A stretch of DNA of 31,025 bases from a virus (taxonomy: Duplodnaviria; Heunggongvirae; Uroviricota; Caudoviricetes), in the IMG/VR virus record IMGVR_UViG_2802429232_000001, positions 1-31,025 of that record; one strand, 5' to 3'. The notes under the pieces were generated by a model, which saw only the letters and a list, made by a program, of their open reading frames with translations, was not told where the DNA came from and searched no databases. The position numbers and the translations under genes were made by a program. Of the stretch, positions 7,133 to 26,232 are shown in pieces. Position 1 is the first letter of the stretch. Each line of letters opens with the position of its first letter.

Positions 7133-7214
7133 TGTTTCATCCTTGAAATAAGTAGGCGCTAACATCCTGTCAGCGCCACAATGATAGTAAATCAGTACTT
7201 ACTTATCCAGATGC

Positions 7215-7550
7215 TTAAGCCTCAAATACTTGTCTGAATGTAGCAGTTAAGACACAGTACCCCTGATATCGCTTGACCGTATGACTGTCACATACAACTA
7301 CAATCTGCTTGCCTCTTGGATTAACCCAATAGAACGATTCAACGCCTGATCGCTCAGTCAGGAAGTCATCGATTGCATTAATTTCGTTGTATGATCTGGT
7401 AAAGGTTAACGACCATTCTTCTTTAATACGATTAAGACCTTGAGCCTGTCGCTGCTCGTAGTCATCACCAAAATTAAGTACCGTTACATTCGGTTTTACG
7501 CTTTTTTCAGATTCGTAATCTGGATACCAATTAAACGTTTGTCTTTCCAT
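7215..7550 (-). CDS. M: Minor tail protein (lambda M-like)
   Basis: ORF track (111 aa). Immediately downstream of tape measure; FGDDYEQRQAQGLN resembles lambda M FGDGYSQRAPAGLN. Confidence 0.8.
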   Translation of the reverse strand: MERQTFNWYPDYESEKSVKPNVTVLNFGDDYEQRQAQGLNRIKEEWSLTFTRSYNEINAIDDFLTERSGVESFYWVNPRGKQIVVVCDSHTVKRYQGYCVLTATFRQVFEA

Positions 7551-7565
7551 CTCACATCCTTGTGA

Positions 7566-7587
7566 GACTGCCCCCGTCGGGGCAGTC
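7566..7587 (-). other. GC-rich hairpin in the tape measure-M spacer
   Basis: GACTGCCCC-cgtc-GGGGCAGTC; no U-run follows, and the M RBS (AAGGA) lies just downstream. Confidence 0.4.
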
Positions 7588-7592
7588 GATAG

Positions 7593-10500
7593 TTAGTTAC
7601 GTTGAGTGTTTGGGTTGAGTGATCCGCCAGGGCGTTTTTCTTGAGCGATAGTCTCAAGTACGACGGCTTTCACCCGCTGAGCTGCATTATTCCATATGCT
7701 TTCTGTATCGCCGGATTCAGTTGTGCTACCGTCACTATGGACGTTGATCTCAATTGATACAGGAGAAAGAACATTTCCGCCTCCACTCATACCATCGGTA
7801 CTGAGCGTTACAGGGATTGTTCGGCCATCAGGCAATGGAACATACGCCTCATTCATAGAACCTTCCCCAAACAACGCTAATTGAGGTGAGTTAGCAATAC
7901 CGCCTTTCTGGTATGCCCGGAGCGGGATCACGCCGTCTTTTCCGAATATTCCTCCATTTGCAAACTTCGGGATTGCAGGAATGCCTTTAGTTCCGTCAGC
8001 CACACTGCTAGTTGCGGTTTTAGCAGAGCTTGATGTCACACTGTCGAAACCACCACCTGCCCATACTGAAACCAACCCAGATGCAACTGTCGCGCCGAAA
8101 TTCAACCACTTATTACCAGAGCCGGAAGCATTAGCTCCAAGCATTGCAAACGCGGCAGACAGAGCACCGGTAACAGAGCTGAGGTTCTGCATCGAGAAGA
8201 TGGAATCCTTCACTGCTTTTGTCTCAGCATCTTTGGCTTCGGTGCTATCAAATAGTCCTGATACCCAGCTACCAATCGCATTTGTTGCTGTGCCAATTGC
8301 GCTGGTGGTCTGCTGTGTCGTTTGCCCCAATCCAGTTACCGAACTGGACGTCTCCTTCGTGGCTTCTCCTACCGACTTGTCGCCGTTAACAGTGTTGCCC
8401 ATTCGTACCTCTTGATTGGCAACGGCGGAAGCAACCCCGGTCAGCAAATTACCACTCTGTGAACTACCAGCTGCGGTGGTTCCCATCCCCAACATGTTCA
8501 TTAGAGGCAGCGTGATCTGCGACTTCACGACCATATTGGTGATATCTTTCAAAATGGACTGAGATAGGCTGGAGAAGCTCATCTTCCCGTTAATAACGAA
8601 ATCAGTCAGGACATCAGTTAAGCCACTAAACAAATCAGTCCAGGTGCTTTCGATCTGCTCTGCCAGGTTTTCGTATTCCAGTGCTAACTTCTGCGTCGCA
8701 GTCCCTGTCTCTTTAATGAGCGCGGTATTGCCAGCAGCAATAAGTTGATTGATTTTCTTTGTATAAAGCGCCACGACTTTAGGATCAGACGCCTTATCAC
8801 GAAGTTCTATCAACGCTTTGAGATTGCGGTTGTAGGTGTCTTCGAAATCAGCAACTTTCTCTTCGCGAGACGGCGTATAGCCAGCACTAATAATGGAATC
8901 CGCCTCCGGTGCCCAAGTGGAGATCATCTGCTCAACATTGCGGCGATTAAACATCTCGCGATATTCAGGTGTCGCATTTTTGAGGTCTTCAAGACGTTTT
9001 TTCGCCTTGTCGATCATCTCTTGAGTGATGAACTCGTTAGGAACCGCATTAGCCAAATCTGTCAGCGATTTCGTTGTATCGCGAAGAGACTGATCAAACG
9101 ATACCGTAGCCTTAGAGCTTTCACCCATTTGCCCCATAAGCTGATCGGCTTTGTCCAGAGCCTTCTGGTATCCGGCTGCCAGTTTCTGTTGCGCTGCCTG
9201 TTCTTTCTTTGCTGCTCTCTCGGCTGCTTTTGCGGTACGGTTTGCTGCCTTATCCGCTGCTTCAGCATCAAGTTCACGAGCTTTTGTCAGAGTCTTAATT
9301 ACTGCGATGCGGTCATTTTCTGACAACTGCTCTAATTTCACATCACCGTAAATTTTCTTCTGTCTTAATTGCTCCTTGAGTTGTCGAGGCCCAACAACAG
9401 GTTGACCTTGTAAGTCGTATAATGCGGAACCATCTAGATTGACTCTTTGATACCTTTTAGAGTCCATCTGCTGTTTCCAAAAACCAGTCATAGTTTTGGA
9501 ATTAGCATCAACTGGTGTGCTTGAAAACTCACCAATTTTACCGCCATTAATTGACTTAAGACCGCTACCAGCTTTCACACTAAGGCTGGTCGTAACATTT
9601 TCGATCTGCTCTTCTATCGATTTCTTGTTAGCTATCTGAGCATCAATCCGAGCCTGAATTTCTTTGAGCTGTTCAGTATTATTTGCCGTTGTAGCCTTTT
9701 TAAAATCCTCATTTAAGTTAACAAGATCATTAAGAATACCCTTCTGAATATCCTGATAACCTTTGAGTTTTTGAAGATCCGCCTCAGAATATAAACGCTC
9801 GATTTTTGCGTTATTCGCGCCTCTTAATTGACTCTTCTCGTGATCAGATAGGTCAGTTCTGCCGGCAATCTCCTCATTCTTCTTGTTAAGCTGCTCCAAC
9901 TCCTTAGCATTTGCAACCAAAGAGACGTTTGCCTTCTGGTTTACTTCGGCAATTGCATCGTCTAAACCTTTGGTGACGCTTTTATAGACGCTCTTCTCAA
10001 TGCCTTCGCCAAGTGTTTTAGCTATGTCATCGCGTTCTTTCTTTAGGTTTTCAAGTTGTTGTTTGGTGCTGTTAACGTCAACATCTGTTTCATAAACCAG
10101 CCCATCTCTTGAAACCTGTGATCGTTTACCTGTTGTTACCTCCTTCTCTAGCTTGCTGATCTGACGATCTTTCTCTCGCTTTGCAGACTCCAGCATCGCG
10201 CGATCTGCCGCCGTCATTGCTTCAGGTATCTCTCTGACTTTATTTACGACATCCTCAATTTTTCCTCTGAGTACCTGCATGTAAAAAATCAGCGATGACA
10301 CTGCTGTTACTGCTGCGGTAAAAGCAAAACCTATCGGATTTGCGGCCATGAACGCAACCAATCCACTGAACGCATTACGAATAGCGAAGATTAAAGATGG
10401 TATAGGTGATAGCCCCATGCTCGCTGCCCGATTAAATCGTTTAACGGCTGTGGAAGCGAGATTAAATGTCCCTTGTATAGTGGTAGACATATTCGCAAAA

Positions 10501-12122: not shown

Positions 12123-12129
12123 TCCCTTG

Positions 12130-12852: not shown

Positions 12853-13599
12853 TTAATCTGCGGAGTTAATCGTTACTGACTTAGTAGCCTTCTTAGAACC
12901 GCTATTGCTGGTGAAGGAGATGTTTGCAGTACCCTGCGCCACACCGCGCACAAGACCCGTTTGATCTACCGTGGCCTTTTCCTGGTCTTCGGATTCCCAA
13001 ACACCGGTTTTGTCTGCGGCATCAGCTGGAGTGATTTCGGCTGTCAGTTGCACAGTTTCTCCAGCTTTTACGGTTGGAGATTCCGGTGAGATCGACACAG
13101 TTTTTACCGGTTTAGGACCGCTCATTTTGCCCAGAACGCCTTCATCATCCGGGTATGCGCTGAACTGAACAGAGAACACACGAACATCATCAGACTGGTA
13201 GGTCATAGTGAAGTTGCCCGCGGTTGCCGCTTTCGGGATGGTCAACACATAGTCGGTGGTGTCCTGCGGAGTCAGAACCAGCTCCTTCGCCACATCAATC
13301 AGGTTAACGCCCTGTGCAGATGTGATCGTGACAGAGTTGTCATCTTCGCTCAGAGTAGAACCAGGCATCAGGTCAACCATGTTTTGGAGTACAGACTCAG
13401 CCAGAGGCGCGGTGATGGTAATGTTGCGCCCCTGAACTAATTCGGAAATTACGGTCTGCCCCAACTGATCGACGGTGACTTTCAGCGTTTCAGTGGCTAC
13501 TTCAACCTGAACACCACCTTTGGTGTAACCCAAATCCACACCACCAAACGACACCTTACAGGCACCAAGTTTGATGTTTTTTACATGGGTATTAGACAT
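12853..13599 (-). CDS. Major tail protein with C-terminal Ig-like (Big_2-type) domain (lambda V-like architecture)
   Basis: ORF track 12853..13635; start moved to Met13 (MSNTHVKNIKLG) at 13599, preceded by AAAGGAG. C-terminal ~80 aa (VSISPESPTVKAGETVQLTAEITPADAADKTGVWESEDQEKATVDQTGLV) has the Big_2 pattern. Position directly upstream of G/T/tape measure. Confidence 0.75.
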   Translation of the reverse strand: MSNTHVKNIKLGACKVSFGGVDLGYTKGGVQVEVATETLKVTVDQLGQTVISELVQGRNITITAPLAESVLQNMVDLMPGSTLSEDDNSVTITSAQGVNLIDVAKELVLTPQDTTDYVLTIPKAATAGNFTMTYQSDDVRVFSVQFSAYPDDEGVLGKMSGPKPVKTVSISPESPTVKAGETVQLTAEITPADAADKTGVWESEDQEKATVDQTGLVRGVAQGTANISFTSNSGSKKATKSVTINSAD

Positions 13600-13649
13600 T
13601 GATGGAAAACTCCTTTTTCCGTTAATTCTACGCATTCATTGCGCTAATG

Positions 13650-13665
13650 GTAAGTATATACTTAC
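13650..13665. promoter_or_regulatory. Perfect 16-bp palindrome GTAAGTATATACTTAC upstream of major tail gene
   Basis: Read directly from sequence; lies in the 75-bp spacer between the preceding gene stop (13674) and the major tail RBS. Confidence 0.5.
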
Positions 13666-13673
13666 TAATTGAG

Positions 13674-14057
13674 TTAATTCAATAAATAGCCAGCAAATTC
13701 AACAGGAATGCCTGCTTCTATTAATGCCCCATCATTTTTGGGATAAATGATTGGCATCGCCATCGGTCGTACAAGTCGAAAATAAACACCACCAGATTCC
13801 GTTTCCTCTACTGGAAACATCTCAATGATTTTATTGGTTTTCTCAACCGTCGTAGTAATTGACGAACCACGCACAATGATTGTGAATGATTCGTGATAAA
13901 AGCCCTGTAGCTCATGATCGATGCTGATACCGGTATTTGGGTTAATAAGCAGGACGCCAGATTTCACATTGGCAGGCAAGTAGTGACAGAAAATGTCAGT
14001 CCCGACCGTGCCAATCTTTGCCTTCTGCATCAAACTTGCAAACGCTTCAATAAACAC
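13674..14057 (-). CDS. Head-tail joining / tail completion protein (hypothetical)
   Basis: ORF track 13674..14180 overlaps the upstream gene by 122 nt with an implausible N-terminus. Trimmed to GTG at 14057 (GAGAGG 5 nt upstream); ATG at 14030 is the alternative. Function inferred from position only. Confidence 0.4.
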   Translation of the reverse strand: MFIEAFASLMQKAKIGTVGTDIFCHYLPANVKSGVLLINPNTGISIDHELQGFYHESFTIIVRGSSITTTVEKTNKIIEMFPVEETESGGVYFRLVRPMAMPIIYPKNDGALIEAGIPVEFAGYLLN

Positions 14058-14058
14058 A

Positions 14059-14532
14059 TTAACCTCTCGTAAATCCGGCTTTTCTGGCAGCCTCAAGAAT
14101 CGCTTCTGAGAACTGCTTCTCGCTAATTTCCACCGCTCTTTCCAGAAAGTGTGGCCCAACACGGGGTTTAACACCGGCAATGGGTGGGTTTGTCACGTTC
14201 TTCATTCGAGAAAGATAACCGAGTCGGTATTTACCCAGCTCCATGTACTTAGCATAGTCACCTACTTCTACGCCCGGATGCCCCTGACGTGGTTTTGCTC
14301 CAGACACAGAAAGCTCAATACGCAGCCCTGAATAACCTTCTTTAATCACCCTGGCAAAGATGGCTGTCTCCAGAGATCCGGTTTCCAGCGGGGCCATTGC
14401 ACGGCTGAGACGCTCAACCAAACGCGCCAGCTTTTCCATGTCCCGGATAAGATATCGCTTAAATGCTTTCTGGCTGTTGTTGAGTCGATTCCCCGCACGT
14501 TTGAACTGATGCGCATCGTATTTCAGACCCAT
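14059..14532 (-). CDS. Head-tail joining protein (hypothetical)
   Basis: ORF track (157 aa); position between head genes and major tail gene. Confidence 0.45.
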   Translation of the reverse strand: MGLKYDAHQFKRAGNRLNNSQKAFKRYLIRDMEKLARLVERLSRAMAPLETGSLETAIFARVIKEGYSGLRIELSVSGAKPRQGHPGVEVGDYAKYMELGKYRLGYLSRMKNVTNPPIAGVKPRVGPHFLERAVEISEKQFSEAILEAARKAGFTRG

Positions 14533-14867
14533 ATATTCGCCCCTACTTCAAGATGCCCAGGTCTTCCTCGTAGCCCCCAGCGGCGATGAACACTGGACAC
14601 CTTTAATTTTTGACCTTCAAGGATCAGCACATCATCAAGTTGTACAGCCGCTTCTAAAGGGACAACTAACACAGCATCAAACAGCTCCAGACTCGCCTTA
14701 CCACGACTACCAGAGCTATCAGCACGAACTGACGATTTCTCATTACTCTGTTCGAACTTAACCACGCCGACATTCGTCTTCCTGACGAATTGTAATTGCG
14801 CCTCACCGTAAACGTTCTTTGCGCCAAAGCGGTAGATCGCAATTTCTGTTTGCCATGAAATATTCAT
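14523..14867 (-). CDS. Head-tail joining protein (hypothetical)
   Basis: ORF track 14523..14963; start moved to Met33 (MNISWQTE) at 14867, preceded by GGGAGAG. Position only. Confidence 0.4.
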   Translation of the reverse strand: MNISWQTEIAIYRFGAKNVYGEAQLQFVRKTNVGVVKFEQSNEKSSVRADSSGSRGKASLELFDAVLVVPLEAAVQLDDVLILEGQKLKVSSVHRRWGLRGRPGHLEVGANIWV

Positions 14868-14946
14868 GCTCTCTCCCTGTTGTTGTCGGTCGCTCTCATT
14901 ACTGGCCAAAAACCCTTTAGACCAAAAGTAAATAATGCGACTGGCG

Positions 14947-15780
14947 TTACGCACGGCGAACAATCATACGGTTGTTGATGTAACTGACCAGCAAGCGCCA
15001 GGTACTGCGAGCCACATGCACGTTTGCAGCTTTACCGGTACGGTACATGTTGGTTGTTTCACCGATTGACTCTGACAAAATGCCATCCTCTCGTGCTGCG
15101 GCAACATCATTGCCATTTGCGATCTCACACGCTTCGTTGACAACGGCAAGCATCAACGCTTCTTTGAAGTAGTCAGGGAACTCTTCAAACTTCTCCTGCG
15201 TCATCTTTTCCCAATCGACTAAATCATGCCGGTACGCTCCATCTGCTCCCCACGGAATGTCATACACATTCAGCATATTTTGAGGGCGATCGTATCGGTC
15301 AAAGTCGATACGTAGAATTTTGCGGATTGAGAACGGTAAAGTTTTAATTCGTCTGGTAGCCTCAATGAGACGCTTGCGCATTAAGCCTTCACCATCCGAC
15401 AGCAAAGTGTCCCCATTCAGCATATCGATCGCCTGCATTTGAGCATCAGCGACAGTTGCAAACGACTGTTCTGGTATCGACAGTTCAAAACTATTCAGCA
15501 GAACATACATTTGCCGCTCTTCATGCGTCAGACCCGATGCAACAGCCTTCACAATGACGTACCGCAGATCTCGCTCTTTCTCAGAGAGCTGGTTATATTC
15601 AGCCGACACGACAACCGGAATCGACATTTGACCGCTGGTAATTTCTAGCGGCTCGCCATCAACGAGAATAGCCCCGGTGCTGTCCTTTACTGTGTAGGTA
15701 GCAGATTCGATATCCAGCACGTTGAAGGCAAATGAAAGAGAAACAGCTTCACCGCTACGATACGAGTCGATCTGCGCCAT
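14947..15780 (-). CDS. Hypothetical virion structural protein (277 aa)
   Basis: ORF track; start overlaps the upstream stop by 1 nt (TAATG), indicating translational coupling within the late operon. Confidence 0.5.
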   Translation of the reverse strand: MAQIDSYRSGEAVSLSFAFNVLDIESATYTVKDSTGAILVDGEPLEITSGQMSIPVVVSAEYNQLSEKERDLRYVIVKAVASGLTHEERQMYVLLNSFELSIPEQSFATVADAQMQAIDMLNGDTLLSDGEGLMRKRLIEATRRIKTLPFSIRKILRIDFDRYDRPQNMLNVYDIPWGADGAYRHDLVDWEKMTQEKFEEFPDYFKEALMLAVVNEACEIANGNDVAAAREDGILSESIGETTNMYRTGKAANVHVARSTWRLLVSYINNRMIVRRA

Positions 15781-16214
15781 TACTCACCGCCTTGTGCTTT
15801 CAGGATGCCTTCAATCATCTCGACAATTCCTTTCGCTTTGACACCAACCTGATTACCAATAACTCGTAGACCGGCAATACCTTCGTTGTCTGCAATGGAC
15901 TCCAGCTCTTCTCGTGTGAAAGCCTGGATCTGTTTGGCCGGTTCATCTGGTGTTCCACGTTTCATTGGCACAATGTCAGGCGCTGCTGGCTCGGTAATCA
16001 GGTCTGCTGTCAATTCACCACGATCACTGTATGCGGCAGACGGAGAGACATTTTTGCCCTCTACTGTTGACGCTCGCATTGAAGCACAAATCCTCTGCTG
16101 ATCGATAAAAGGCAACTCCGCTACGGATACCCCGTTCTCGAACTGAACGCCACACAGCATTCCCGAATAACCGGAAAATTGCGGTTCTAATAAAACAATT
16201 TTTGCTGGTTTCAT
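15780..16214 (-). CDS. Hypothetical virion protein (144 aa)
   Basis: ORF track; lies between the Ig-like decoration gene and the 277-aa gene. Confidence 0.5.
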   Translation of the reverse strand: MKPAKIVLLEPQFSGYSGMLCGVQFENGVSVAELPFIDQQRICASMRASTVEGKNVSPSAAYSDRGELTADLITEPAAPDIVPMKRGTPDEPAKQIQAFTREELESIADNEGIAGLRVIGNQVGVKAKGIVEMIEGILKAQGGE

Positions 16215-16258
16215 AACGCTTTCTCTCCTCTTGGGCGGCTTTCGCCGCCCAATATCGG

Positions 16259-17179
16259 TTATTCCTGTGCGGCAGTGACCTCTACGGTCGCTGTCGCTTT
16301 GTGGCTACCATCTTGGGTAGTAACCTCGATTGTGGCAGTGCCAGCCGCAACACCAGTTACAACACCGGTTTCGCTGTCCACCGTTGCAAACTCGGTATTT
16401 TTGGATTCCCAAGTAACGGTTTTATTTGTGGCTCCTGCCGGCTCGACATTTGCGGTCAGCCGAACAGTTTTGTTTGCCTCAACGGTTGTGCTATTTGGGT
16501 CGATTTCGACGCCTGTAACAGCCACAACAGGCGCAGTTACTTCCACCGTTGCAGTTGCCTTTTTGCTACCATCTTGGGAAACGATCTCAATCGTCGCAGT
16601 GCCAACTTCTACACCAGTTACGTTCCCGCTCTGGTCTACCGTTGCCTTATCTTCATTTTTGGAAGACCAGGTAACAGCCTTATTCGTCGCATTTGACGGC
16701 TGAACATTCGCTTTCAGACTGACTGATTTCCCTTTCTCAACAGACGTTGATTCTGGCGTTACCGTTACGGATTGAACGGCTACCGGATTTACGGTGACTT
16801 CCACTGAAGCGGAAAGCTGGGTTTCCTGATCAGTTGCAGTAATTTTTGCTTTGCCTGGGGCTACGCCAGTTACTAATCCAGTGCCGTTAACGGTTGCAAT
16901 TTGATCATTGGCTGACTTCCAGGTGAATGAACTGGCACTCTTACCCATACTAATACCTGCACTAAGTTGAACAGTTTTCCCAACCAAAACTGATGGTGAA
17001 GCCGGAGTTATGTTTACGGATTGGGAGAAGGGAACCGCCTGCAAACAAGCAGATAGCTGACTTTGTTGCCGCTCGGTTAAAGGTTCATCGGAGATAGAAT
17101 TGGTAAATCCGGCACGGCACATATGCCCCGTAAAATCCGAAAATGCCTCTTCCGTAATCTTCATCTTTTGTTCTGGCAT
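16259..17179 (-). CDS. Ig-like (3x Big_2-type) capsid decoration / surface protein
   Basis: ORF track (306 aa). Three ~80-aa repeats of the pattern VTVTPESTSVEKGKSVSLKANVQPSNATNKAVTWSSKNEDKATVDQSGNVTGVEVGTATIEI. Lies immediately downstream of the putative major capsid gene. Confidence 0.6.
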   Translation of the reverse strand: MPEQKMKITEEAFSDFTGHMCRAGFTNSISDEPLTERQQSQLSACLQAVPFSQSVNITPASPSVLVGKTVQLSAGISMGKSASSFTWKSANDQIATVNGTGLVTGVAPGKAKITATDQETQLSASVEVTVNPVAVQSVTVTPESTSVEKGKSVSLKANVQPSNATNKAVTWSSKNEDKATVDQSGNVTGVEVGTATIEIVSQDGSKKATATVEVTAPVVAVTGVEIDPNSTTVEANKTVRLTANVEPAGATNKTVTWESKNTEFATVDSETGVVTGVAAGTATIEVTTQDGSHKATATVEVTAAQE

Positions 17180-17191
17180 TTCTCGCTCCTA

Positions 17192-17221
17192 CAAAAAGGG
17201 TGGGCGTATAGCCCACCCTTT
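17192..17221 (-). terminator. Intrinsic terminator after putative major capsid gene
   Basis: AAAGGGTGGGC-gtata-GCCCACCCTTT; on the transcribed strand a GC-rich 8-11 bp stem is followed by TTTTTGT. Lies between the capsid stop (17253) and the next gene RBS. Confidence 0.7.
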
Positions 17222-17252
17222 AACATAGATAACTACTTATCTACTACACTGA

Positions 17253-18128
17253 TTAAATTTTTACATTGGTCAGTGCAGCGATAGCCTTATCGTGCTTATT
17301 CGCCAGAGAGCAGTACCACTTCACACGGGTACGTACTGCGTCTTTGTTCTGTACAGTACCAATGTTTTCAACAACGATACCTGCGTTGTCGCCGCCATAC
17401 AGACCAGTAACGCCGTTCTCTTCTGACAGATGCAGGCAGTAGATGCTTGCTTTGCCAGAATCGGTCGGGATGAAGTCGTTGATGATGAACGGAACGCCGT
17501 TATGACACAGCATCGGACGACCGAAGTTCTCCATCATGATTTCAGACGGACCTACGTTTACTGTACGCAGCAGCGCACGATAAGCACGCAGGTGCTCTGA
17601 ACGCATCATGATGCAGTCAGCACCAAGATCTTTCACCGCATCGACCAGTTCGTCGAACATAGAGAAAGTCATAGATGCACCGGCGATATCGATCTTCTGA
17701 TCTGCGTGCATCAGGCGTGGAATGCCGTCAAACGCTTTGTTGTTGGAGCTGGAGTCACCCAAAATCAGGTTGCGGCGGAACGCACGAGCCAGACCTTTAA
17801 CTTTCTGACGAACCTGAATAGCCAACTGGTTATTGGTGTCGGCCATAGTGGTTGCTAGGAATTTATCAACGTCTACGTCACCAGCCAGAATACGCAGTTT
17901 CGCAACGCATTCTTCGAAGGTTGCTGCACCTTCAGGGATGGTGTCGTTAACGTCGATGAAGGTAGCTTCACTCAGCGTTTTTTCACGGTTGTACAGATAT
18001 GCCTTTGAATTAATTTTCATAAAAGGCAGGATGGCAAACAGGTCATCGCGATCGATGATAGTTTCGATCACACCCTGTTCAAGTTCGTTGTTAGACAGCT
18101 TTTCAGCTTCTTCACGCAGTAATGGCAT
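17253..18128 (-). CDS. Putative major capsid protein
   Basis: ORF track (291 aa). Position after portal and scaffold, AAGGGAA RBS, and the strong terminator directly downstream (expected for the most abundant late transcript). Fold not verified. Confidence 0.55.
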   Translation of the reverse strand: MPLLREEAEKLSNNELEQGVIETIIDRDDLFAILPFMKINSKAYLYNREKTLSEATFIDVNDTIPEGAATFEECVAKLRILAGDVDVDKFLATTMADTNNQLAIQVRQKVKGLARAFRRNLILGDSSSNNKAFDGIPRLMHADQKIDIAGASMTFSMFDELVDAVKDLGADCIMMRSEHLRAYRALLRTVNVGPSEIMMENFGRPMLCHNGVPFIINDFIPTDSGKASIYCLHLSEENGVTGLYGGDNAGIVVENIGTVQNKDAVRTRVKWYCSLANKHDKAIAALTNVKI

Positions 18129-18153: not shown

Positions 18154-19041
18154 TTACTTAAGTCCAATTTTCCCCAGACCGGAGGCCAACTTATCCATAG
18201 TCGACTTGTTCTTCGGTTGGGATATTGTGTAGGTCGATTTGGAATGTGAGCCTACACCCTGCTTGGCTTCGCTACGCATCAATGCGTCAGCTTCCGGATC
18301 TGCCCGCACAATGCGTTCAATCGCGGATTCAAACGGCAACGGCTTACCTTCACCGTCAACCAGAACAGCTCGTTCTTTATGACCTGCCGGTTTGTCATAA
18401 CCCACTACGCTACCGTCTTCACCCACTTCAAAATGAGAACCGTAGATCACGCGGGCTTTTGCCGGAGTCATCAGAACTTTGTCACGTAGGAAGAGAGAGT
18501 TACTGAAGGAAGCGCCCACGGTCATCTCGACTAATTGAGATTTCAGTGATGCGTTTTCACTTTCCAGTGCTGCATAACGTTCGTCACGCTGTGCCAGCTC
18601 TGCCTGGTGTGCTTCGATCATCTGTTTTTTAACAGCATCGAACTCACCACGACGCTCCAGTTCAGCTTGCTCCGCCTCACGACGTGCGTTTTCTGCGGCC
18701 TGTTCAGCTTCTAAAAGCTGGCGAGCACGAGCCGGATCGATATCACCGTACTGAGCAAGCTGATCGGCCAATGTGCGCTCTTTCTCTTTGCGCTTCATGT
18801 TCTCCTTCAGCAGTTCAGCACCAGCTTTCTTGGTTTTACGAAGTTCGGCCAGTAACTCTTCCTGAGTCATGCCAGCGTATTCGTCATCGCCCTTCGGCTG
18901 CTCTTTTTGTTCACCCTGTTTGTCAGGATCTTGTGTACTCTGCTCATTATCAGCAGCTACACCGCCAGCGCCTCCACGCTCATGCGCTTCAGCGACATCC
19001 ATCAGACCACGACGGGCCAAAAGCATTTGCCACAGATTCAT
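18154..19041 (-). CDS. Scaffolding-like protein (acidic, coiled-coil)
   Basis: ORF track (295 aa). Highly charged Glu/Ala/Arg/Gln-rich helical segment (AELLKENMKRKEKERTLADQLAQ, EAEQAAENARREAEQAELERR), between portal and capsid genes. Confidence 0.55.
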   Translation of the reverse strand: MNLWQMLLARRGLMDVAEAHERGGAGGVAADNEQSTQDPDKQGEQKEQPKGDDEYAGMTQEELLAELRKTKKAGAELLKENMKRKEKERTLADQLAQYGDIDPARARQLLEAEQAAENARREAEQAELERRGEFDAVKKQMIEAHQAELAQRDERYAALESENASLKSQLVEMTVGASFSNSLFLRDKVLMTPAKARVIYGSHFEVGEDGSVVGYDKPAGHKERAVLVDGEGKPLPFESAIERIVRADPEADALMRSEAKQGVGSHSKSTYTISQPKNKSTMDKLASGLGKIGLK

Positions 19042-19062
19042 AAAAATTCCTTTTGTTACTTA

Positions 19063-20637
19063 TCACTCGTTCTCTTGAGTAGATGAGTCCCCATTCCCTC
19101 GGGGTTGATCTTGCCCGCTTTCTTGGGCTGCACCACGATCATAAGTAAGTACTGACTTATTTTCAAGGGTATTTAGATCATTTTTTGGAGGAAAATTCAA
19201 GAGATCTTTATCAAATTCCTTTTTCATCGCCTCAGTAATGTTCGGGAAAATCTTCTCAATAAGCATTTCCATCTGGTGACGACGTACAGAGTCCGGTGCC
19301 TGAAGTAATGACAGTTTCTCGGCAACAGAAAATTCATCAGTAAGGCCACGAATATCGAAACTTTCTGGATACGCAATTAAAGAGTGGTCTTCGTCCAGAT
19401 CTACCCCCATCCATTTCGCAACCAGTAGCATGATTTGGCGTTCAGCCCTTTCCAGACGCTCTGCTTTTGTGACAAGCAAGCTATTTACACGCTGGAAGTC
19501 ATACATTTTTGCGGCACCAGATGAATTATCGATTCCCTGTGCGTTGTCCTGCTTCGTTCGCTCACCAGCTACACCAACTGAATGGTAGATTTCGTTAATC
19601 ACCGTCTTAATCGTAGTGATGATCATCTGAGCTTGTTTCGGGTCTGGTGACAGATAAAACGGCTGGTTTCCACCTTCAGAATCGTAGGTGAAGACTCGCT
19701 TTGTGCCCATTTCAAGCACTTTAGTGTGGTTTTCATCACCAGGTAAAAGCGACTGTACCGGTATAGCCAACTGGCTAAATGTCTGATCCTGAATAATGGC
19801 ATCAAGGTTTGACAGATAGTTTGCAACCGCACGATCAAGATAAGCGATATCATCGATCAACGATGGGCTGAAATACGGTGATTCACTTTCTCCAATACAA
19901 TCAACAGGAAACACAGGAACTACGCCGAGATTATGCTCACCGCTATCCTCTAAAATAACTTTTGCCTGACGGCGACCTGCTCCACCAGCGCCCTTCTTCA
20001 CTTCCTCACGGAACAGATACCACTCGTTTTGTGTCCACAGACGATAACGTTGGTATTCCTGACCTGTAGAAGTAAAAGGATCTGCGTCATCACGAGCGAC
20101 TTCCACAATTAACGCCCACAACATATTCCCGTCGTCGTCCCATGCCACATCCAGCATTTGCTGAGGTGAAATCCAGTAGGCGTAGGCGCGAGCATCTTTC
20201 TTTTTCTCGTCAGCTACTGACTCAACATCACCACTCATCGTGCTATCGACAACAACCCATATGCGACCGTAAATAGACGACTGCAAATCAATAGCGGCCA
20301 TAAATGAGTCAATAGAGGCATTCTGGCGAGTCGCACGTTTCCAGAAATTGCGGATCTGCTCTGGTGCCTCTTCGATATTTCTATGAATGTCTTCTTTAAA
20401 GAGATATTTGTTGATGAGGTTTACCACCTCACGAGTGTGGTTGAAGCGATAAGCACGTTCAACTCGCTCCTTAAACTCCTGATCTCCCTCTTTAAAGTAA
20501 CGAAAGATATTGTCTGTAAACCAACCACGCCCGCCAGCGTAAGTGCTGGCGAGGAAGTCCCAATGTTCTTTTTTCTTTTCGTATTCCGGGTGGCGTCGCG
20601 CCACCAGATCCTTAATTTGTTTGTCGTTCAATTCCAT
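19063..20637 (-). CDS. Portal protein
   Basis: ORF track (524 aa); size and position immediately downstream of large terminase. Confidence 0.65.
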   Translation of the reverse strand: MELNDKQIKDLVARRHPEYEKKKEHWDFLASTYAGGRGWFTDNIFRYFKEGDQEFKERVERAYRFNHTREVVNLINKYLFKEDIHRNIEEAPEQIRNFWKRATRQNASIDSFMAAIDLQSSIYGRIWVVVDSTMSGDVESVADEKKKDARAYAYWISPQQMLDVAWDDDGNMLWALIVEVARDDADPFTSTGQEYQRYRLWTQNEWYLFREEVKKGAGGAGRRQAKVILEDSGEHNLGVVPVFPVDCIGESESPYFSPSLIDDIAYLDRAVANYLSNLDAIIQDQTFSQLAIPVQSLLPGDENHTKVLEMGTKRVFTYDSEGGNQPFYLSPDPKQAQMIITTIKTVINEIYHSVGVAGERTKQDNAQGIDNSSGAAKMYDFQRVNSLLVTKAERLERAERQIMLLVAKWMGVDLDEDHSLIAYPESFDIRGLTDEFSVAEKLSLLQAPDSVRRHQMEMLIEKIFPNITEAMKKEFDKDLLNFPPKNDLNTLENKSVLTYDRGAAQESGQDQPRGNGDSSTQENE

Positions 20638-20663
20638 TTGAATAACCTTAGATAATTACTTAC

Positions 20664-21920
20664 CTACCGAGAACCACCAAGAATAACACGGTTTTTGACT
20701 GGATACCTACGATGTACTGGATAGCCCAATGCGTCTGCACTATGCTCAATGCCACCTGTCTTATCCATATCTCGTGTTCCAGGCTTGTAGATGACTTTTT
20801 CCAGTGAATCAATCAAATGCTTGCACTTCGGATCGATATACAGCCGGATATCTCCAGATGCGGACATCAGCATTCGGTTAACAGCATTAACACGATCCGC
20901 AATTGGCGGGTGCTTTTTCGAATAATCGACACGTAAGAATCCCTTCTCTTTGAATATGTCTACGTCAGACTCCCCACGAGCATGTTGGCGATAAGCACCT
21001 GCCGGATCTGGAAATACCGTTACCTGTGATTTCCAGCGCCAGAAGCGTCTCTCAAGCTCATCACAAACTTCTGCCGTGTTAGAGGAAAAGAGCACCAATT
21101 CATCAATTGCCCATAGCTCACCATTTGGCTGAGGTTGCAAAATTACTGAAGACATCGGGTCAATGTTGAAGTCCTGCCCTACCCATATAGGCAACCGAGG
21201 GTTGAACTGAAGCGGTTTTACATGCACGTTACGATCGAACGGGTAGTAAACGCGCCCGGACATGTTCTCAAAGCTGGCCAGGTACTCCTGAGCGAACGAT
21301 TTGGGGTCCATATCGTTCTTAGCAGCTTCAATTTCCGCCGTAGGCACAAACGGAGAATCGGCAGTTACAAACTGCCAGCTCTTCCACTGTCCCTTTCTTT
21401 GCAGCTCTACGTTCTGGCCTATAGTCCACAGTTTGTGAAATTCCGAGAAGCCTTTTGGCGTACCAATGATCAGTGCACCGCCGCGTGTCGATGAAAGAGT
21501 AGGTCGTAACACCTTGTACCAGGTGTCAGCCTTCATATCCTGAAATTCATCAAGCACTACAAAATGCAACGCTACGCCGCGCAGAGTGTCAGGCTTATCA
21601 GCACCTTTGAGGGCGATCTCCGAACCGTTCTTCAACACGATTGTCATCGTGGTGTCGTTCTTTTTCCTAACCCACTTACGAGGCAGAACTTCCTGTAGAT
21701 CGTCCCACAAAATCTGGCGAGCCATCTGGTAAGTAGGAGCGACATACCAGACCCTTTGCTTTTTTTCCTTTGCCGCCGCACGAATAATAGTGGAGATCGA
21801 CAACCGGGATTTTCCCCAGCGTCGACCAGCACAAACAACTTTAAATCGATGCGGAGACTGGAAGACTTTCATCTGTCCAGAATGCAGTTGCACAAGACTG
21901 AGCGAGGACGGGATTGCCAT
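20664..21920 (-). CDS. Terminase large subunit
   Basis: ORF track (418 aa). Walker A-like VVCAGRRWGKSRLS, Walker B-like HFVVLDEFQD, acidic nuclease-domain motifs (VGQDFNIDPMS, FPDPAG). Start overlaps small-subunit stop by 1 nt (TAATG). Confidence 0.8.
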   Translation of the reverse strand: MAIPSSLSLVQLHSGQMKVFQSPHRFKVVCAGRRWGKSRLSISTIIRAAAKEKKQRVWYVAPTYQMARQILWDDLQEVLPRKWVRKKNDTTMTIVLKNGSEIALKGADKPDTLRGVALHFVVLDEFQDMKADTWYKVLRPTLSSTRGGALIIGTPKGFSEFHKLWTIGQNVELQRKGQWKSWQFVTADSPFVPTAEIEAAKNDMDPKSFAQEYLASFENMSGRVYYPFDRNVHVKPLQFNPRLPIWVGQDFNIDPMSSVILQPQPNGELWAIDELVLFSSNTAEVCDELERRFWRWKSQVTVFPDPAGAYRQHARGESDVDIFKEKGFLRVDYSKKHPPIADRVNAVNRMLMSASGDIRLYIDPKCKHLIDSLEKVIYKPGTRDMDKTGGIEHSADALGYPVHRRYPVKNRVILGGSR

Positions 21921-22552
21921 TATTCGTCCTCCCCTTCACTTCCATCATCTGTCGCATCAAATTCGCTTAGAGCTTCTTCTTCCAACGTCTCAAGCAATTC
22001 GTCATCGATGATTTCAGGCTCGTCGTCTTCCTGACGTAATTTCGCCACCTGGGAAGGCGTAAGCTCACCAAATACCAGGTTCGGAATTTCTTCCTCGTCA
22101 TTTTCCGCATGATCCATGCCCAATGCTTTGGACGAAACTTCAAAGCATTTTGCAAGGGTATTACTGGCTCTCTGTAAGCTCTTGAGAGAATCCTCAATCG
22201 CCCCTAAAGGCTTACCCTCACGTTTGGCCGTAGTGACTTCGACCATCACCATCTGCCCCAACGCATACGCCCAGCCGTCATAACGTGTACGACGTTCTTC
22301 TATCTTTTCCGCACGGGCTTTAGCGCGAAGCTCTGCGTCAGATTTAAGAGACTCACGAACCATCTTCCCAACAGAGTCCGCGCCTTTCTCTAATCCTCGC
22401 TTTTTGAAATGTCTGGAGAGTGTTTCACGACGAATGCCGTACTCTTCCTCCAGCTTTGAGAGTGTATATTCGCCTGACGTCCATTTGGCTTCAGCTTCGG
22501 CCCACTCCGCTGGTGTCAGGCGAGTTTTTACCTCGTCTTTTTCGACCGTCAT
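21920..22552 (-). CDS. Terminase small subunit (putative)
   Basis: ORF track (210 aa). N-terminal HTH-like region, very acidic C-terminus, AGAGGGA RBS, translationally coupled to the large subunit. Confidence 0.55.
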   Translation of the reverse strand: MTVEKDEVKTRLTPAEWAEAEAKWTSGEYTLSKLEEEYGIRRETLSRHFKKRGLEKGADSVGKMVRESLKSDAELRAKARAEKIEERRTRYDGWAYALGQMVMVEVTTAKREGKPLGAIEDSLKSLQRASNTLAKCFEVSSKALGMDHAENDEEEIPNLVFGELTPSQVAKLRQEDDEPEIIDDELLETLEEEALSEFDATDDGSEGEDE

Positions 22553-22747
22553 AGATCCCTCTAAAACACACAGAGCGCGTCCATGCGCTCTAAAACAACT
22601 TGTTTACTGCATCTGCTAACCAACTTGTTTTCTGGGGTGTTTAATTAGGTCTGGCATGTCTTACGAAGCCTGCTTCCGTATATATTTAATAAGTTACTTA
22701 TTATTTATATATACAGAAGCAGGTCTTTAAATAAGCTCCCAGACCGA
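22553..22747. promoter_or_regulatory. Highly structured 195-bp non-coding region upstream of small terminase: direct repeats, hairpin and a ~60-bp AT-rich imperfect palindrome (candidate cos/pac and/or late promoter)
   Basis: CTCTAAAACA twice (~22559 and ~22588); CAACTTGTTT twice (~22596 and ~22621); hairpin AGAGCGC-gtccat-GCGCTCT (~22572-22591); palindrome CCTGCTTC..TATATAT..AATAAGT-t-ACTTATT..TATATATA..GAAGCAGG (~22665-22727). Confidence 0.5.
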
Positions 22748-23014
22748 TTACATCACCAGTAACTTCGCTTTGGCTCGACCTAAAGTGGTTAACCCAAGAG
22801 TTCGGCGGTGATAGCGATTGTCACTGCGTTGGCGCGTATGCCCTTTCTCCACCAGCCCCTTTTTTATCAGAGCGCGAATTGAGAACTGGATACTTTGCTT
22901 GGTTGTCTTGTACGGCAAAACTTCAAGCAATTCGTCCAGGTCAAGTAGATGACCTCGCTCATAACCGAGATTGAGCGTTTTGATGATGTCCTTTTGTTTA
23001 TCGGTTAACGTCAT
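22748..23014 (-). CDS. Small winged-helix DNA-binding protein (putative)
   Basis: ORF track (88 aa); basic, helix-rich (SIQFSIRALIKKGLVEKG followed by a basic tail); last gene of the ParB/ATPase module. Confidence 0.4.
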   Translation of the reverse strand: MTLTDKQKDIIKTLNLGYERGHLLDLDELLEVLPYKTTKQSIQFSIRALIKKGLVEKGHTRQRSDNRYHRRTLGLTTLGRAKAKLLVM

Positions 23015-23023
23015 GGCAAATCC

Positions 23024-23923: not shown

Positions 23924-24174
23924 CTGCGCTCGATATTGGCATTGATGAAATCCAGGCGAAGAGACTCCATCGCCCCTACCATGACATACGGGCGCCCGCC
24001 GTTATGCCAGCAATCAAGAACACTGCCGTCGTTGTTGATCATCAACAGCGCCAGGCTCTGGCTTTTTCCTTCTCTGGCGTGCTGAAGTGCTTCTTCCAGC
24101 AGGCGGATGACTTCCACGTTGTTGTTATCAGTCTCTTTCGATGGCTTCAGCTCTACGATCTTCAAATCAGGCAT
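23920..24174 (-). CDS. Hypothetical small protein (84 aa)
   Basis: ORF track; overlaps upstream gene end by 8 nt; part of the tightly coupled module. Confidence 0.4.
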   Translation of the reverse strand: MPDLKIVELKPSKETDNNNVEVIRLLEEALQHAREGKSQSLALLMINNDGSVLDCWHNGGRPYVMVGAMESLRLDFINANIERR

Positions 24175-24805
24175 ATTCCACCTTCACGCGTTCTTTGTAG
24201 TGCTTGGTGATCTGCATATCCGGGCGCAGCGCGTTCTTCAGGTCTTCGTGAGTCGTCGCCACCATTACCGTCGCACCAACCTTTCGAGCGGCACGCTGGA
24301 GGTTAGACGCCACAACCTGAGCGGTTACACGGTCTAGAACAGCGCCGAACTCGTCAGCAGCCCATACTTTAGCGCCTGACTCAATCAGTTTGGCAATCTT
24401 GAGACGATATTTCTGGCCGTCTGACATTTCAGAAGGCTTGCGAACAAACAGATATGCATCGTTCAGACCAGCCATAGATAACAACCCAAGCGCATCACTG
24501 GTCGTTTTGCCCAACTGATCGATGACGTTAACCTCATTATCGAAGGTAAAATCATCGATGGAGGCCACAGATAGCCCTTCATCCTTCATCTGGTGTTGCA
24601 GCTCGCGCAGCACAACGGATTTGCCGGAACCGGATTGGCCGGTAATGTACACCACATCGCCCTGCTTCACTTCCAGCTCCAGATTGTCGTAAAGCGTCCA
24701 CTCTTTTTCGTCCAGGCCAAGCCCGAACGACTCAGCGATTTCCAACGTGCGCGTGGTTTTATTTACGCGTGTCTGAAACGATACGTTGATGATGTATTTG
24801 CTCAT
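24167..24805 (-). CDS. Minimal ABC-type ATPase (nucleotide-binding domain only)
   Basis: ORF track (212 aa). Walker A GQSGSGKS, ABC signature-like MSDGQKYRL, Walker B KVWAADEFG, H-loop VATTHE. No membrane partner nearby. Start overlaps upstream stop (ATGA). Confidence 0.7.
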   Translation of the reverse strand: MSKYIINVSFQTRVNKTTRTLEIAESFGLGLDEKEWTLYDNLELEVKQGDVVYITGQSGSGKSVVLRELQHQMKDEGLSVASIDDFTFDNEVNVIDQLGKTTSDALGLLSMAGLNDAYLFVRKPSEMSDGQKYRLKIAKLIESGAKVWAADEFGAVLDRVTAQVVASNLQRAARKVGATVMVATTHEDLKNALRPDMQITKHYKERVKVEYA

Positions 24806-25470
24806 GCAGCCATCTCCCCGGAAGAGATCTTCTCCGCATATGCCACAAATGCGTCTACCCCGCTTTCTCCCGTCATTTCTTCCATGTGGGCAAGCAAATC
24901 ACCAACAACAATGGCAGAGCCAGCAGGGAGCGTTTTAAAGCCCAATACGTCGACAACACGTACTTCTTCCGCTGCAACTTCACGACTGATCTCGGTGTGT
25001 TCATCCTTCTGTCGTTTAGTTTCTTCGCCAAGATCGATAACTAGCGAGTCGGTGTCCATTTCTTCTGTCATACTGCCAACGAGAACATTCAACTCACGCT
25101 CTTCAAAGCCGAAAACCTCGATATCGTCCAGAACAAGCGACTCAAGCTCTTTCTGTAGCTTAATTGCATCGTAATCAATGCTGGCAAGTCGGTTATCTTC
25201 AAGGCGCTTCGCACGAACCTCGTCATCACTGAGATCATCGCGAACAATAACCGGTACGCGCTCAAGTCCAGCAAAAATTGCAGCCTCACGGCGGCCGTGG
25301 CCAGTAATAATTACGTCGTTCTTATCGACCGTAATTGGCTGGTCAAATCCGCGCTTTTTAATGGCTGCGGCTAGATCTCGGATCTGCTGTTCATCATGCT
25401 TTTTGGCATTCATCTCATAGGGAATAAGATCTGCCGGGTCGCGATATACGATTTCAAACTTTTTGGTCAT
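24802..25470 (-). CDS. ParB/Srx-fold N-terminal domain protein (second copy)
   Basis: ORF track 24802..25503; start moved to Met12 (MTKKFEIVY) at 25470, AAGGAG upstream, overlapping the upstream stop (TAATG). ParB-box-like ITGHGRREAA; acidic C-terminal half. Confidence 0.6.
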   Translation of the reverse strand: MTKKFEIVYRDPADLIPYEMNAKKHDEQQIRDLAAAIKKRGFDQPITVDKNDVIITGHGRREAAIFAGLERVPVIVRDDLSDDEVRAKRLEDNRLASIDYDAIKLQKELESLVLDDIEVFGFEERELNVLVGSMTEEMDTDSLVIDLGEETKRQKDEHTEISREVAAEEVRVVDVLGFKTLPAGSAIVVGDLLAHMEEMTGESGVDAFVAYAEKISSGEMAA

Positions 25471-26150
25471 TACATACGCTCCTTGTAGTAGTCGACCAGC
25501 CACACCAGAGCCTCACCAGCGTTCTCCATTTCATTACCGGTGTTAATAGCCTGCTCTTTGATGATGTTTTTTATGGTTTCTGCAACACGATCTGACGCAT
25601 CGAAAGTTACTTTGAAGCGCATGGTCTGATGTTCCGCACCCACACGTTCGGTTTTCTCTCGTTTGTCGGTATCGACAGGCTCATCACTACCACGAGACAA
25701 AGCCTCCAGTGCTTCAAGGTCGATTGCCGCCTCTTTTGCTAAAACCATCGAGATTTCGTCGTCATACGGGGCGATTTCAGACAGTTGATAGTCAAGTTCT
25801 GACTGAATTTCTTCAATGAAGCGTTGCAATGCGATTTGGTCGTCTTCACCGTATCGCTCGTTGTCCACCAGTGACATCTGTTTAGCTACGACATCGCTAA
25901 TTTTGCCCACAGAAAGCACCGGAACCGTTGAAATTCCTTGCTCAATAGCAGCACGCCAGCGATGTTCGCCGCCGAGGATTTCAAAAAATCCATCTTCAAG
26001 TTCACGAGCCAAAATTGGCTTAAAAAAGCCCAATTTTTCGATAGAACCTTTCAGTTTTTCAAAATTCTGCGCACCAACCGAATTGGTGTTCCAGGTATTC
26101 GGGCGAAGGTTGGCAACATCAACCTGCAAAATCGTGATTTTTACATCCAT
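25470..26150 (-). CDS. ParB/Srx-fold N-terminal domain protein (first copy)
   Basis: ORF track 25470..26168; Met1 (26168) or Met7 (26150) are both possible. ParB motif FEILGGEHRWRAA; acidic C-terminal half. Confidence 0.6.
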   Translation of the reverse strand: MDVKITILQVDVANLRPNTWNTNSVGAQNFEKLKGSIEKLGFFKPILARELEDGFFEILGGEHRWRAAIEQGISTVPVLSVGKISDVVAKQMSLVDNERYGEDDQIALQRFIEEIQSELDYQLSEIAPYDDEISMVLAKEAAIDLEALEALSRGSDEPVDTDKREKTERVGAEHQTMRFKVTFDASDRVAETIKNIIKEQAINTGNEMENAGEALVWLVDYYKERM

Positions 26151-26168
26151 TTTATTGCTACAATCCAT

Positions 26169-26232
26169 TAAGTAATCACTTACTTATTATAATAGCCAAA
26201 TAACATACAAAAGGCACTAAGGAAAGAGGTTT
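26169..26232. promoter_or_regulatory. Divergent intergenic region with inverted repeat TAAGTAA-tcac-TTACTTA and TATAAT-like element
   Basis: Only 64 bp separate the divergent gene starts. Inverted repeat at ~26169-26186; TATAAT at ~26188-26193, readable on both strands; no convincing -35. Strong SD AAGGAAAGAGG precedes the helicase ATG. Confidence 0.4.

Follow-up and report, generated by a model that had tools for sequence, protein, structure and literature searches.

The locus and its relatives

The stretch of DNA considered here (hereafter the window) comprises the 31,025 nucleotides at positions 1 to 31,025 of the IMG/VR record IMGVR_UViG_2802429232_000001, a virus of the Caudoviricetes. 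It is 98.8-99% identical to the Escherichia coli phage-plasmids CMS-2020a and Cyrano (pLF82) and ~82% identical to Salmonella phage SSU5. The minus strand is the sense strand for the packaging, head and tail genes, a set made up of terS (21920-22552), terL, portal, scaffold, capsid (17253-18128), tail tube, tape measure, M, L, K, I and J. A short sequence containing TAAGTA or its complement TACTTA recurs at the boundaries of these genes, and a first-pass annotation of the window had listed eight strings as examples; all eight are found where it placed them and read on the minus strand as it described. Here we describe the element to which most of these strings belong, its distribution and the proteins that may bind it.

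Elements of this type are common, clinically widespread and often carry resistance genes. In the plasmid collection, an SSU5-type portal is encoded by 966 plasmids from Klebsiella, Escherichia, Acinetobacter, Enterobacter, Yersinia, Salmonella, Aeromonas and other hosts, including Yersinia pestis pMT1 and Salmonella Typhi pHCM2. No published account of the motif, or of the control of lysogeny or lytic genes in SSU5-type elements, was found in the searchable literature. Genome-wide statistics were taken on Cyrano, which is complete, annotated and 108,379 bp long. The comparison set consisted of SSU5 and three plasmids, from Klebsiella (portal 72% identical), Aeromonas (pKAM329_1, 55%) and Acinetobacter (CP116441.1, 52%). 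A more remote reference was nickie, a lytic Pseudomonas phage of 112 kb, of which 31 kb were examined; its portal is 50% identical, and it shares the gene order that runs from the divergent helicase and parB genes to terS.

A motif concentrated between genes

The first-pass annotation considered the motif too frequent and too consistently positioned to be a product of chance, and both its excess over shuffled sequence and its concentration between genes bear this out. On the two strands of the window TAAGTA/TACTTA occurs 19 times against 9.06 ± 3.1 expected, a count reached by none of 100 dinucleotide-preserving shuffles. The longer forms RATAAGTAA (four copies, 0.52 expected, 0/100 shuffles) and TAAGTAA (eight copies, 3.2 expected, 3/100 shuffles) are similarly over-represented. 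Non-coding DNA makes up 7.1% of the window, yet 11 of the 19 hexamers do not lie fully inside a coding sequence (binomial P = 1e-8).

The same pattern holds for the whole Cyrano genome, where 44 copies of the hexamer fall in the 13% of the DNA that is non-coding and 25 in coding DNA. The resulting intergenic-to-coding density ratio, 11.7, exceeds that of every other hexamer among the 30 listed (top by z-score), and TAAGTA/TACTTA ranks third by excess over composition in an unbiased hexamer census of that genome. With at most one mismatch, the 14-mer TAAGTAnnTACTTA occurs 14 times in Cyrano against 0.03 expected. Frequency was thus set against base composition, and intergenic against coding occurrence; since the excess is present and the density in coding DNA is lower, the TAAGTA motif is real, non-random and intergenic.

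The palindromic unit and its members

Alignment of all intergenic copies revealed a partner arm. The real unit is a palindrome of 20-30 bp, of which TAAGTA is the half-site. Its consensus reads ATGATAAGTAAGT on one side of the axis and ACTTACTTATCAT on the other, with the core GGTAAGyrCTTACC; iterative refinement of a symmetric matrix gave aaATGATAAGTAAGT and ACTTACTTATCATtt for the two arms, with a TpA step every 4 bp. Inverted half-site pairs (TARGTA...TACYTA) occur at spacings of 2 and 6 only, with an additional class at -2 in SSU5, and everted pairs are lacking except for one isolated SSU5 pair at a spacing of 29. At a position weight matrix (PWM) score of at least 16, Cyrano carries 25 sites, 24 of them intergenic, and SSU5 carries 23. 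The Cyrano genome holds ~25-30 full copies in total, and sites occupy 25 of its 81 spacers of at least 15 nt, or about a third.

The PWM scan, for which window peaks were listed down to a score of 9, placed seven full sites in the window. Five of the eight strings in the first-pass annotation are parts of these; two others are half-sites only, and one is the apex of a different hairpin that is present in three copies. Two full members, at 830-859 and 19136-19165, had been overlooked. The first of these lies 3' of the stop codon of J (tail tip), reads TAAAAATAGGTAGGT and ACTAACTTAATGGTG on the minus strand (PWM 18.5) and has orthologues at 22443 in Cyrano and 21932 in SSU5. The second lies within the 3' end of the portal gene and has the top score in the window (PWM 25.8). 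Its 30-mer is identical in SSU5 despite the overall identity of ~82%, and it sits in the spacer of a sigma70-like promoter (TTGAAA-17-TATGAT, 10/12 matches, running from 19166 to 19138 on the minus strand) that is directed at the scaffold and capsid genes.

The remaining five full sites lie between genes. The M-L spacer contains the site at 7182-7211 (minus strand TCTGGATAAGTAAGT and ACTGATTTACTATCA, PWM 19.2), which includes the string noted at 7195-7207 and is also found at the M-L junction of SSU5 and of the 72% Klebsiella relative. Between the tail-completion and tail-tube genes, the site at 13645-13674 (PWM 21.5) contains the perfect 16-bp palindrome GTAAGTATATACTTAC at 13650-13665, which is shared with SSU5, and overlaps two sigma70-like promoter matches on the minus strand (TTGAAT-18-TATACT, 13682 to 13653, and TTACCA-17-TAGAAT, 13653 to 13625). 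The site at 17220-17249 (minus strand GTGTAGTAGATAAGT and AGTTATCTATGTTAA, PWM 16.1; noted as 17231-17242) falls between the stop codon of the major capsid gene and an intrinsic terminator, with the terminator-like hairpin running from 17218 to 17202 directly beyond it. This order of stop codon, site and terminator after the capsid gene is common to SSU5, the 72% Klebsiella relative and the Acinetobacter relative.

At the terL-portal junction, the site at 20643-20672 (minus strand TCTCGGTAGGTAAGT and AATTATCTAAGGTTA, PWM 18.9; noted as 20655-20664) has the terL stop codon TAG in its left arm; the same core is found there in SSU5, as the perfect TAGGTAAGTGCTTACCTA, and in the 72% Klebsiella, Aeromonas and Acinetobacter relatives. 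The seventh site, at 26163-26192 (minus strand TTATAATAAGTAAGT and GATTACTTAATGGAT, PWM 20.8), lies between the divergent UvsW-helicase and parB genes and contains the palindrome noted at 26169-26186; a site occupies the equivalent place in all five lineages compared.

Two strings near the portal and scaffold genes scored below the listing cut-off. The half-site TGA TAAGTAAC at 19055-19066 (minus strand) follows the portal stop codon without a partner arm; SSU5 has it but the 72% Klebsiella relative does not, and it probably arose incidentally or is the remnant of a decayed site. The half-site CTTAAG TAA C at 18154-18163 (minus strand) consists of the last codon and stop of the scaffold gene (Lys-stop, AAG TAA). 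Four lineages retain AAG TAA C as the end of the coding sequence with its stop codon, without a second arm, and the string was rejected as a member of the family.

DNA site or RNA structure

The palindromes could in principle be read as DNA or as RNA, and an RNA processing site was among the functions proposed in the first-pass annotation. Such sites would form AU-rich hairpins in polycistronic transcripts and serve RNase III or RNase E processing or 3' stabilization, comparable to T7 RNase III sites or repetitive extragenic palindromic elements. The sites are located in transcribed spacers, many of them 0-25 nt past a stop codon (16 nearer the stop versus 10 nearer the next start), every one of them can be folded at -4 to -11 kcal/mol, and motif-free spacers of the late operon have GC-rich hairpins instead.

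The arms themselves argue otherwise. Among the 24 Cyrano sites, 70.4% of cells were paired compared with 71.8 ± 1.6% when partners were shuffled (429 of 500 shuffles at least as high), the covariation score was 0.157 against 0.173 for shuffled partners, and no compensatory base-pair change was detected with these 24 sites and 500 shuffles. Watson-Crick counts at each pair of mirror positions equal the expectation for independent arms, G.T mismatches between arms are about as frequent as A.C mismatches, and folding of 55 sites in the sense and antisense direction gave 27 versus 26, with no strand asymmetry. It is sequence that is conserved, not structure, the stems are short and weak, and members of the family occur at a divergent promoter region and at a repressor promoter. 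Because the arms are independent and show neither covariation nor a folding bias, a protein-DNA site is indicated rather than an RNA hairpin, and the symmetry is best read as two half-sites contacted by a protein dimer, not as a compensated stem. We regard a role in RNA as highly improbable. Intrinsic termination was also rejected as a function of the sites, which are AT-rich and lack a T tract; the terminator-like hairpins, such as that after the capsid gene, are separate from them.

The motif-free spacers with GC-rich hairpins in this part of the late operon are those at Ig/hyp, tube/G and tape measure/M (window 12853-17250). A terminator-like hairpin follows each of the genes for capsid and tail tube, two abundant structural proteins, and suggests that attenuation adjusts the ratios between transcripts.

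Stop codons and promoters

Another function offered in the first-pass annotation was an all-frame translational stop spacer, in which arms resembling (TAAG)n would provide TAA and TAG in several frames on both strands and halt stray ribosomes. In several cases the upstream stop codon does lie within or ahead of the site: the sequence TAGGTAAGTAA has stops in all three frames, the terL stop is inside a site, and the portal stop abuts a TAAGTAA half-site. At the scaffold gene, TAA is part only of a half-site that is not a member of the family. The palindromic partner arm, the fixed spacing classes of the half-site pairs, and the sites that lie more than 100 nt from any stop, in the non-translated divergent region or inside the portal open reading frame are all left unexplained. 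A stop spacer is thus scarcely credible as the function of the element, and the stop codons appear as a side-effect.

It is also very unlikely that the motif is a promoter element at which host RNA polymerase and a phage sigma factor or activator would start transcription separately for each gene or gene group, in the manner of the T4 late promoter, the MotA box or the P1 Lpa box. The sequence GATAAGTA matches the T4 late box, which we take to be TATAAATA, at six of eight positions, and some sites are followed ~17-19 nt from the axis by an extended -10 element (TGTAAGAAT, TGTATAAGAT). The Acinetobacter relative has a gene for a sigma-70-family protein (3078-3743 of the CP116441.1-derived locus, between the genes for a MoxR-like ATPase and the DNA polymerase III alpha subunit). 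The element is symmetric, however, and several sites are followed directly by terminators. A promoter of fixed geometry was rejected, since -10 hexamers at a set distance from the axis do not outnumber those in controls, and so was the sigma-70-family protein as the factor concerned, for which tblastn detected no homologue in Cyrano or SSU5.

One promoter-like match bears on gene annotation. On the minus strand of window 13584-13653, TTACCA-17-TAGAAT is followed by AAAGGAG and ATG; the tail-tube gene therefore probably starts at 13584, as in the Cyrano annotation, and not at the first in-frame ATG at 13635.

Conservation across relatives

The same core is present at the same junctions in the Klebsiella, Aeromonas and Acinetobacter relatives, namely at the terL-portal boundary, between the divergent helicase and parB genes, downstream of the capsid or tail-tube gene, and 5' of terS. 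The form common to the distant relatives is GTAAGY/RCTTAC (the slash marks the axis), and the spacer sequence around the conserved core is unrelated between the three. Local forms read GATAAGTAAGTAnnnACTTACTTA in Klebsiella, gATCAGTAAGTGyTTACTGAtc in Aeromonas and ATATTAGTAAGCRCTTACTAATAT in Acinetobacter. Site positions are kept even between deeply diverged lineages. Nickie, of whose 112 kb 31 kb were examined, showed no recurrent palindrome in that part. The Aeromonas plasmid pKAM329_1 also carries genes annotated as RNA chaperone Hfq (41338-41655) and HU-family DNA-binding protein (16754-17029).

A candidate repressor

A symmetric DNA site calls for a binder. The binding site of a phage regulator, the third function considered in the first-pass annotation, is the favoured one of the three, although the protein it suggested, an 88-aa winged helix-turn-helix (HTH) protein encoded upstream of terS, fits poorly. 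The structural label of that protein is sound: the model contains a winged helix (predicted local distance difference test score 72), and its best structural matches are the DNA-binding domains of LexA, DtxR and MecI. It was rejected as the binder on account of a homologue in nickie, whose examined 31 kb is without palindromes. Two ParB_N-domain proteins of the window, the first of which has a site immediately 5' of its gene, were set aside on the same grounds; terS too has a nickie homologue. Resemblances to the sites of Fur, LexA, TyrR, NarL, Arc, DnaA and IHF were discounted, since the spacing or orientation differs.

A further candidate within the window was a regulator resembling FljA, rejected for want of a homologue in the 41-kb Aeromonas and Acinetobacter loci. 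The gene at 29951-30472 (plus strand) encodes this protein of 173 aa, with a full-length match to Pfam PF03614, 'Repressor of phase-1 flagellin' (FljA; E = 1.9e-68). The phage-plasmid regulator might disturb flagellin expression in the host.

The most likely binder is the XRE-family HTH repressor of the element itself, and we consider it reasonably probable that the sites are its dispersed operators. In Cyrano this is CYRAN_45 (42188-42574), annotated as 'putative repressor', which adjoins the integrase gene and lies outside the window; the sequence GGTAAGTGCTTACC, together with the seven window sites, is named here as the candidate target of the CYRAN_45 family. The repressor is found in 865 plasmids, whose hosts are distributed much like those of the SSU5-type portal, and in the phage collection it is present in every temperate phage-plasmid record and in none of ~30 lytic relatives. 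Homologues occupy the syntenic place in Acinetobacter and Aeromonas (hhalign probability 98.6% for Aeromonas). The homologues from E. coli through to Acinetobacter share the predicted recognition helix, N-x-LS-x-IK-x-G, which can also be aligned in Aeromonas; this fits the invariant core of the sites.

In E. coli, Salmonella pHCM2 and Klebsiella the promoter of the repressor gene reads TTTACA-16-TAATAT followed, after one base, by a perfect GGTAAGyrCTTACC, and this palindrome is the only perfect 12-mer in the Cyrano genome. The arrangement is the classic layout of an autoregulated repressor, as judged from its sequence. The parB promoter in the window has the same layout, with the -10 hexamer, one nucleotide and then the palindrome (TATAAT-A-AGTAAGTGATTACTT). 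Sites are also embedded in sigma70-like promoters inside the portal gene and 5' of the tail-tube gene.

In the proposed mechanism, a repressor dimer would occupy the sites as long as the element persists as a plasmid prophage. Initiation would be blocked at promoters that a site overlaps, for example at the start regions of the repressor and parB promoters and at the spacer of the portal-internal promoter; at an operon junction, a bound site may form a roadblock or anchor cooperative binding. One protein could in this way silence ~100 kb of lytic genes in many transcription units. Both the binding of the repressor and its effect are inferred.

Several observations weigh against this assignment. 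The choice of binder rests on co-occurrence and on one site that looks autoregulatory, and copies upstream of the repressor gene are poor or absent in two Acinetobacter plasmids and in Aeromonas. SSU5 has no repressor gene and yet carries ~30 good sites, an exception that would have to be put down to a recent deletion in a virulent derivative. For many sites no promoter is seen at a set distance. Hexamers resembling a -10 element, 16-22 nt away from the axis, do not exceed their frequency in control windows or on the other strand, and the region shows no enrichment of promoter-like matches (10 versus 17.8 expected). Three sites lie directly before hairpins (terminator-like after the capsid and RuvC genes, GC-rich without a T tract after J) and so cannot be simple promoter operators. 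Finally, the core equals the site of a host protein, SlmA, which could be the real binder or an additional one.

Were the repressor to bind as proposed, these elements would gain an operator sequence, a map of ~25-30 control points per genome and a named candidate for the master repressor, and induction, immunity between related elements and copy-number control would become directly testable.

Resemblance to SlmA-binding sites

SlmA is a nucleoid-occlusion factor of the TetR family that is encoded by E. coli and Aeromonas. Its 12-mer GTGAGTACTCAC requires G1, T2, A4 and G5, with any purine at position 3 and any pyrimidine at position 6; changing position 3 from G to A alters the dissociation constant from ~50 nM to ~60 nM, and the chromosomal consensus has G there (PMC3020112). 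The 20-bp consensus is AAGTAAGTGAGCGCTCACTTACGT, and SBS17, a natural SlmA-binding site (SBS), reads GTTAGTGACCATTTACTTAC (PMC4423959). The sites described here could accordingly be SlmA-binding sites to which the host factor binds, coexisting or competing with the repressor. We consider this unlikely.

The core of the element, GTAAGT/ACTTAC, obeys the published rule, and its consensus core GTAAGTACTTAC fits the 12-bp palindrome rule GTRAGYRCTYAC (G1, T2, A4, G5; R3; Y6). More generally, element and SlmA sites share a palindromic core, GTRAGY/RCTYAC, and a length of ~20 bp, and 4-bp-periodic TAAGT arms are common to AAGTAAGTGAGCGCTCACTTACGT, SBS17 (...CCATTTACTTAC...) and the element (PMC4423959). 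Matches to the 20-mer with at most five mismatches number 9 in the window against 0.45 expected, 27 in Cyrano against 2.6 and 30 in SSU5 against 1.35. Three window sites, at 7182-7211, 19136-19165 and 26163-26192, have three mismatches each, and the last of these directly follows its TATAAT hexamer. The validated sites SBS17 (three mismatches) and SBS12 (five) do no better than many element sites. Perfect 12-mers number one in Cyrano, three in SSU5 and 11 in the whole Acinetobacter plasmid, and there are none in P1 (first 50 kb) or nickie (31 kb), which served as controls. Among the strong Cyrano sites, 19 of 24 have one or both half-sites perfect and 18 of 24 depart from the 12-mer at no more than two positions, and position 6 is a pyrimidine in 48/48 half-sites. 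When a PWM built from the element alone is applied to them, SBS17 gives P = 2e-5 and the SBS consensus P = 9e-5, each in the centred register.

Copies of an SBS on a multicopy plasmid delocalize SlmA and block Z-ring formation (PMC4117426), and SlmA is able to act as a transcription factor (PMC5519180). With ~25 sites per copy, the element would provide a strong platform for DNA-activated SlmA; plasmid copies could be protected from septation, division could be blocked once an induced element amplifies, or SlmA could be used as a transcription factor titrated by copy number. A search with E. coli SlmA (tblastn) found no homologue in any SSU5-type record; a SlmA/TetR binder encoded by the phage was rejected on this basis. 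The single TetR gene of the Acinetobacter plasmid was also rejected, as it lies in a cargo island flanked by insertion sequences and is only generically TetR-like.

The details of the half-sites fit SlmA less well. Position 3 is A in 41, G in 1, T in 4 and C in 2 of the 48 half-sites, although SlmA takes G or A, and this near-exclusive A suggests that the real binder is more selective than SlmA. G1 and G5, which SlmA most requires, are only 79% and 67% conserved, whereas A at -10, T at -9 and A at -8, outside the SlmA core, are well conserved, with -10 differing from the SlmA consensus. The setting differs as well. Chromosomal SlmA sites are mostly intragenic, with 2/24 intergenic (PMC5519180), whereas those of the element are almost all intergenic, and one copy sits on the promoter of the repressor itself. 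Density is also unlike, since the chromosome has 24-52 sites per 4.6 Mb and the element ~25 per 108 kb, which is ~100-fold denser. In a scan of genome contigs aimed at a SlmA of Acinetobacter, the 80 best matches listed were all from Burkholderiales. A 6-bp half-site may, moreover, resemble one of ~200 known E. coli motifs by chance, and no literature linking SlmA to SSU5-type elements was found in the searchable library.

The two binders could also be combined, an idea that we hold to be improbable. The operators would double as SlmA sites that the repressor masks in the lysogen and induction exposes. Loss of the repressor together with replication of the element would then expose hundreds to thousands of SlmA sites off the nucleoid, SlmA would be delocalized and activated, and Z-ring formation would be blocked. 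If true, this would be a host-division arrest encoded in DNA and acting in cis, or a protection of plasmid copies from the septum in the plasmid state, and a dedicated inhibitor protein would be unnecessary, unlike P1 Icd or lambda Kil. The match of the operator core to a SlmA site is in any case unexpected, and offers a testable hypothesis that links a mobile element to the nucleoid-occlusion system of its host.

A separate hairpin and a second palindrome

The remaining string of the first-pass annotation, the palindrome at 22688-22702, is the apex of a GC-clamped, AT-rich hairpin of ~60 nt at 22667-22725, CCTGCTTCTGTATATA...TATATACGGAAGCAGG, which is weak by PWM (15.7). The hairpin has a predicted RNA folding energy of -33.4 kcal/mol (z = -9.7) and is present in three copies per genome, with Cyrano copies at 31160-31215 and 28085-28140. 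It is also written CCTGCTTCTGTATATA...TATATACRGAAGCAGG, and T runs lie 3' of two copies on the sense strand, in the manner of terminators. The GenBank records of SSU5 and Cyrano both start inside the copy that corresponds to 22667-22725; this could mark a genome terminus or pac region, or a mere assembly break.

A second palindrome family, tAAGAAAACAAnTTGTTT, has nine copies in Cyrano (82, 29259, 32080, 58595, 80549, 81278, 93114, 93165 and 96286), all intergenic and mostly 10-60 nt 5' of start codons. The window copy, at 22593-22605, lies ~40 nt upstream of terS. The sequence resembles a -10-like TAAGAA followed by a start-site operator, and could be bound by a second regulator or act as a late-promoter element.

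Comparison with known systems

Dispersed palindromes recognized by one protein are known from KorB operators (RK2) and Noc sites (Bacillus subtilis), with 12-70 palindromes of 13-16 bp; the Noc consensus is quoted in PMC3020112. In this respect they resemble the sites described here. The difference is that both ParB-like proteins of the window have homologues in nickie, whose 31 kb lacks the palindromes, so that the motif does not track the ParB-like proteins.

A parallel for the distribution within operons is offered by the stoperators of Cluster A mycobacteriophages, bound by gp71 in L5. Dozens of these lie in short intergenic spacers, some of them inside operons, and binding is thought to stop elongation. 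The element likewise has dozens of putative repressor sites in short spacers throughout the genome, including the inside of operons, and its intra-operon copies perhaps work in the same manner. Stoperators differ in being asymmetric 13-mers with a strict orientation to transcription, whereas the element sites are symmetric, with a mild bias toward the better arm upstream (60 versus 41 hexamers on the sense strand). Membership in the stoperator class proper, which is asymmetric and of a single orientation, was rejected, as the sites are palindromic and their half-site pairs inverted.

The C1 operators of P1 belong to an element of similar lifestyle. The annotated P1 record has monovalent C1 operators at ref, mat, ssb, c4 and kilA/repL, which we take to be asymmetric 17-mers bound by C1 as a monomer. 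The palindromic sites of the element point instead to a dimer; its candidate repressor, a small HTH protein of the XRE type, is unrelated to C1; and sites are also found in the tight junctions of the late structural operon and before terminators. What the two systems would have in common is the task itself: in each, a plasmid prophage of ~100 kb with many transcription units would be governed by one repressor with many scattered operators, among them some that overlap sigma70 promoters of lytic genes.

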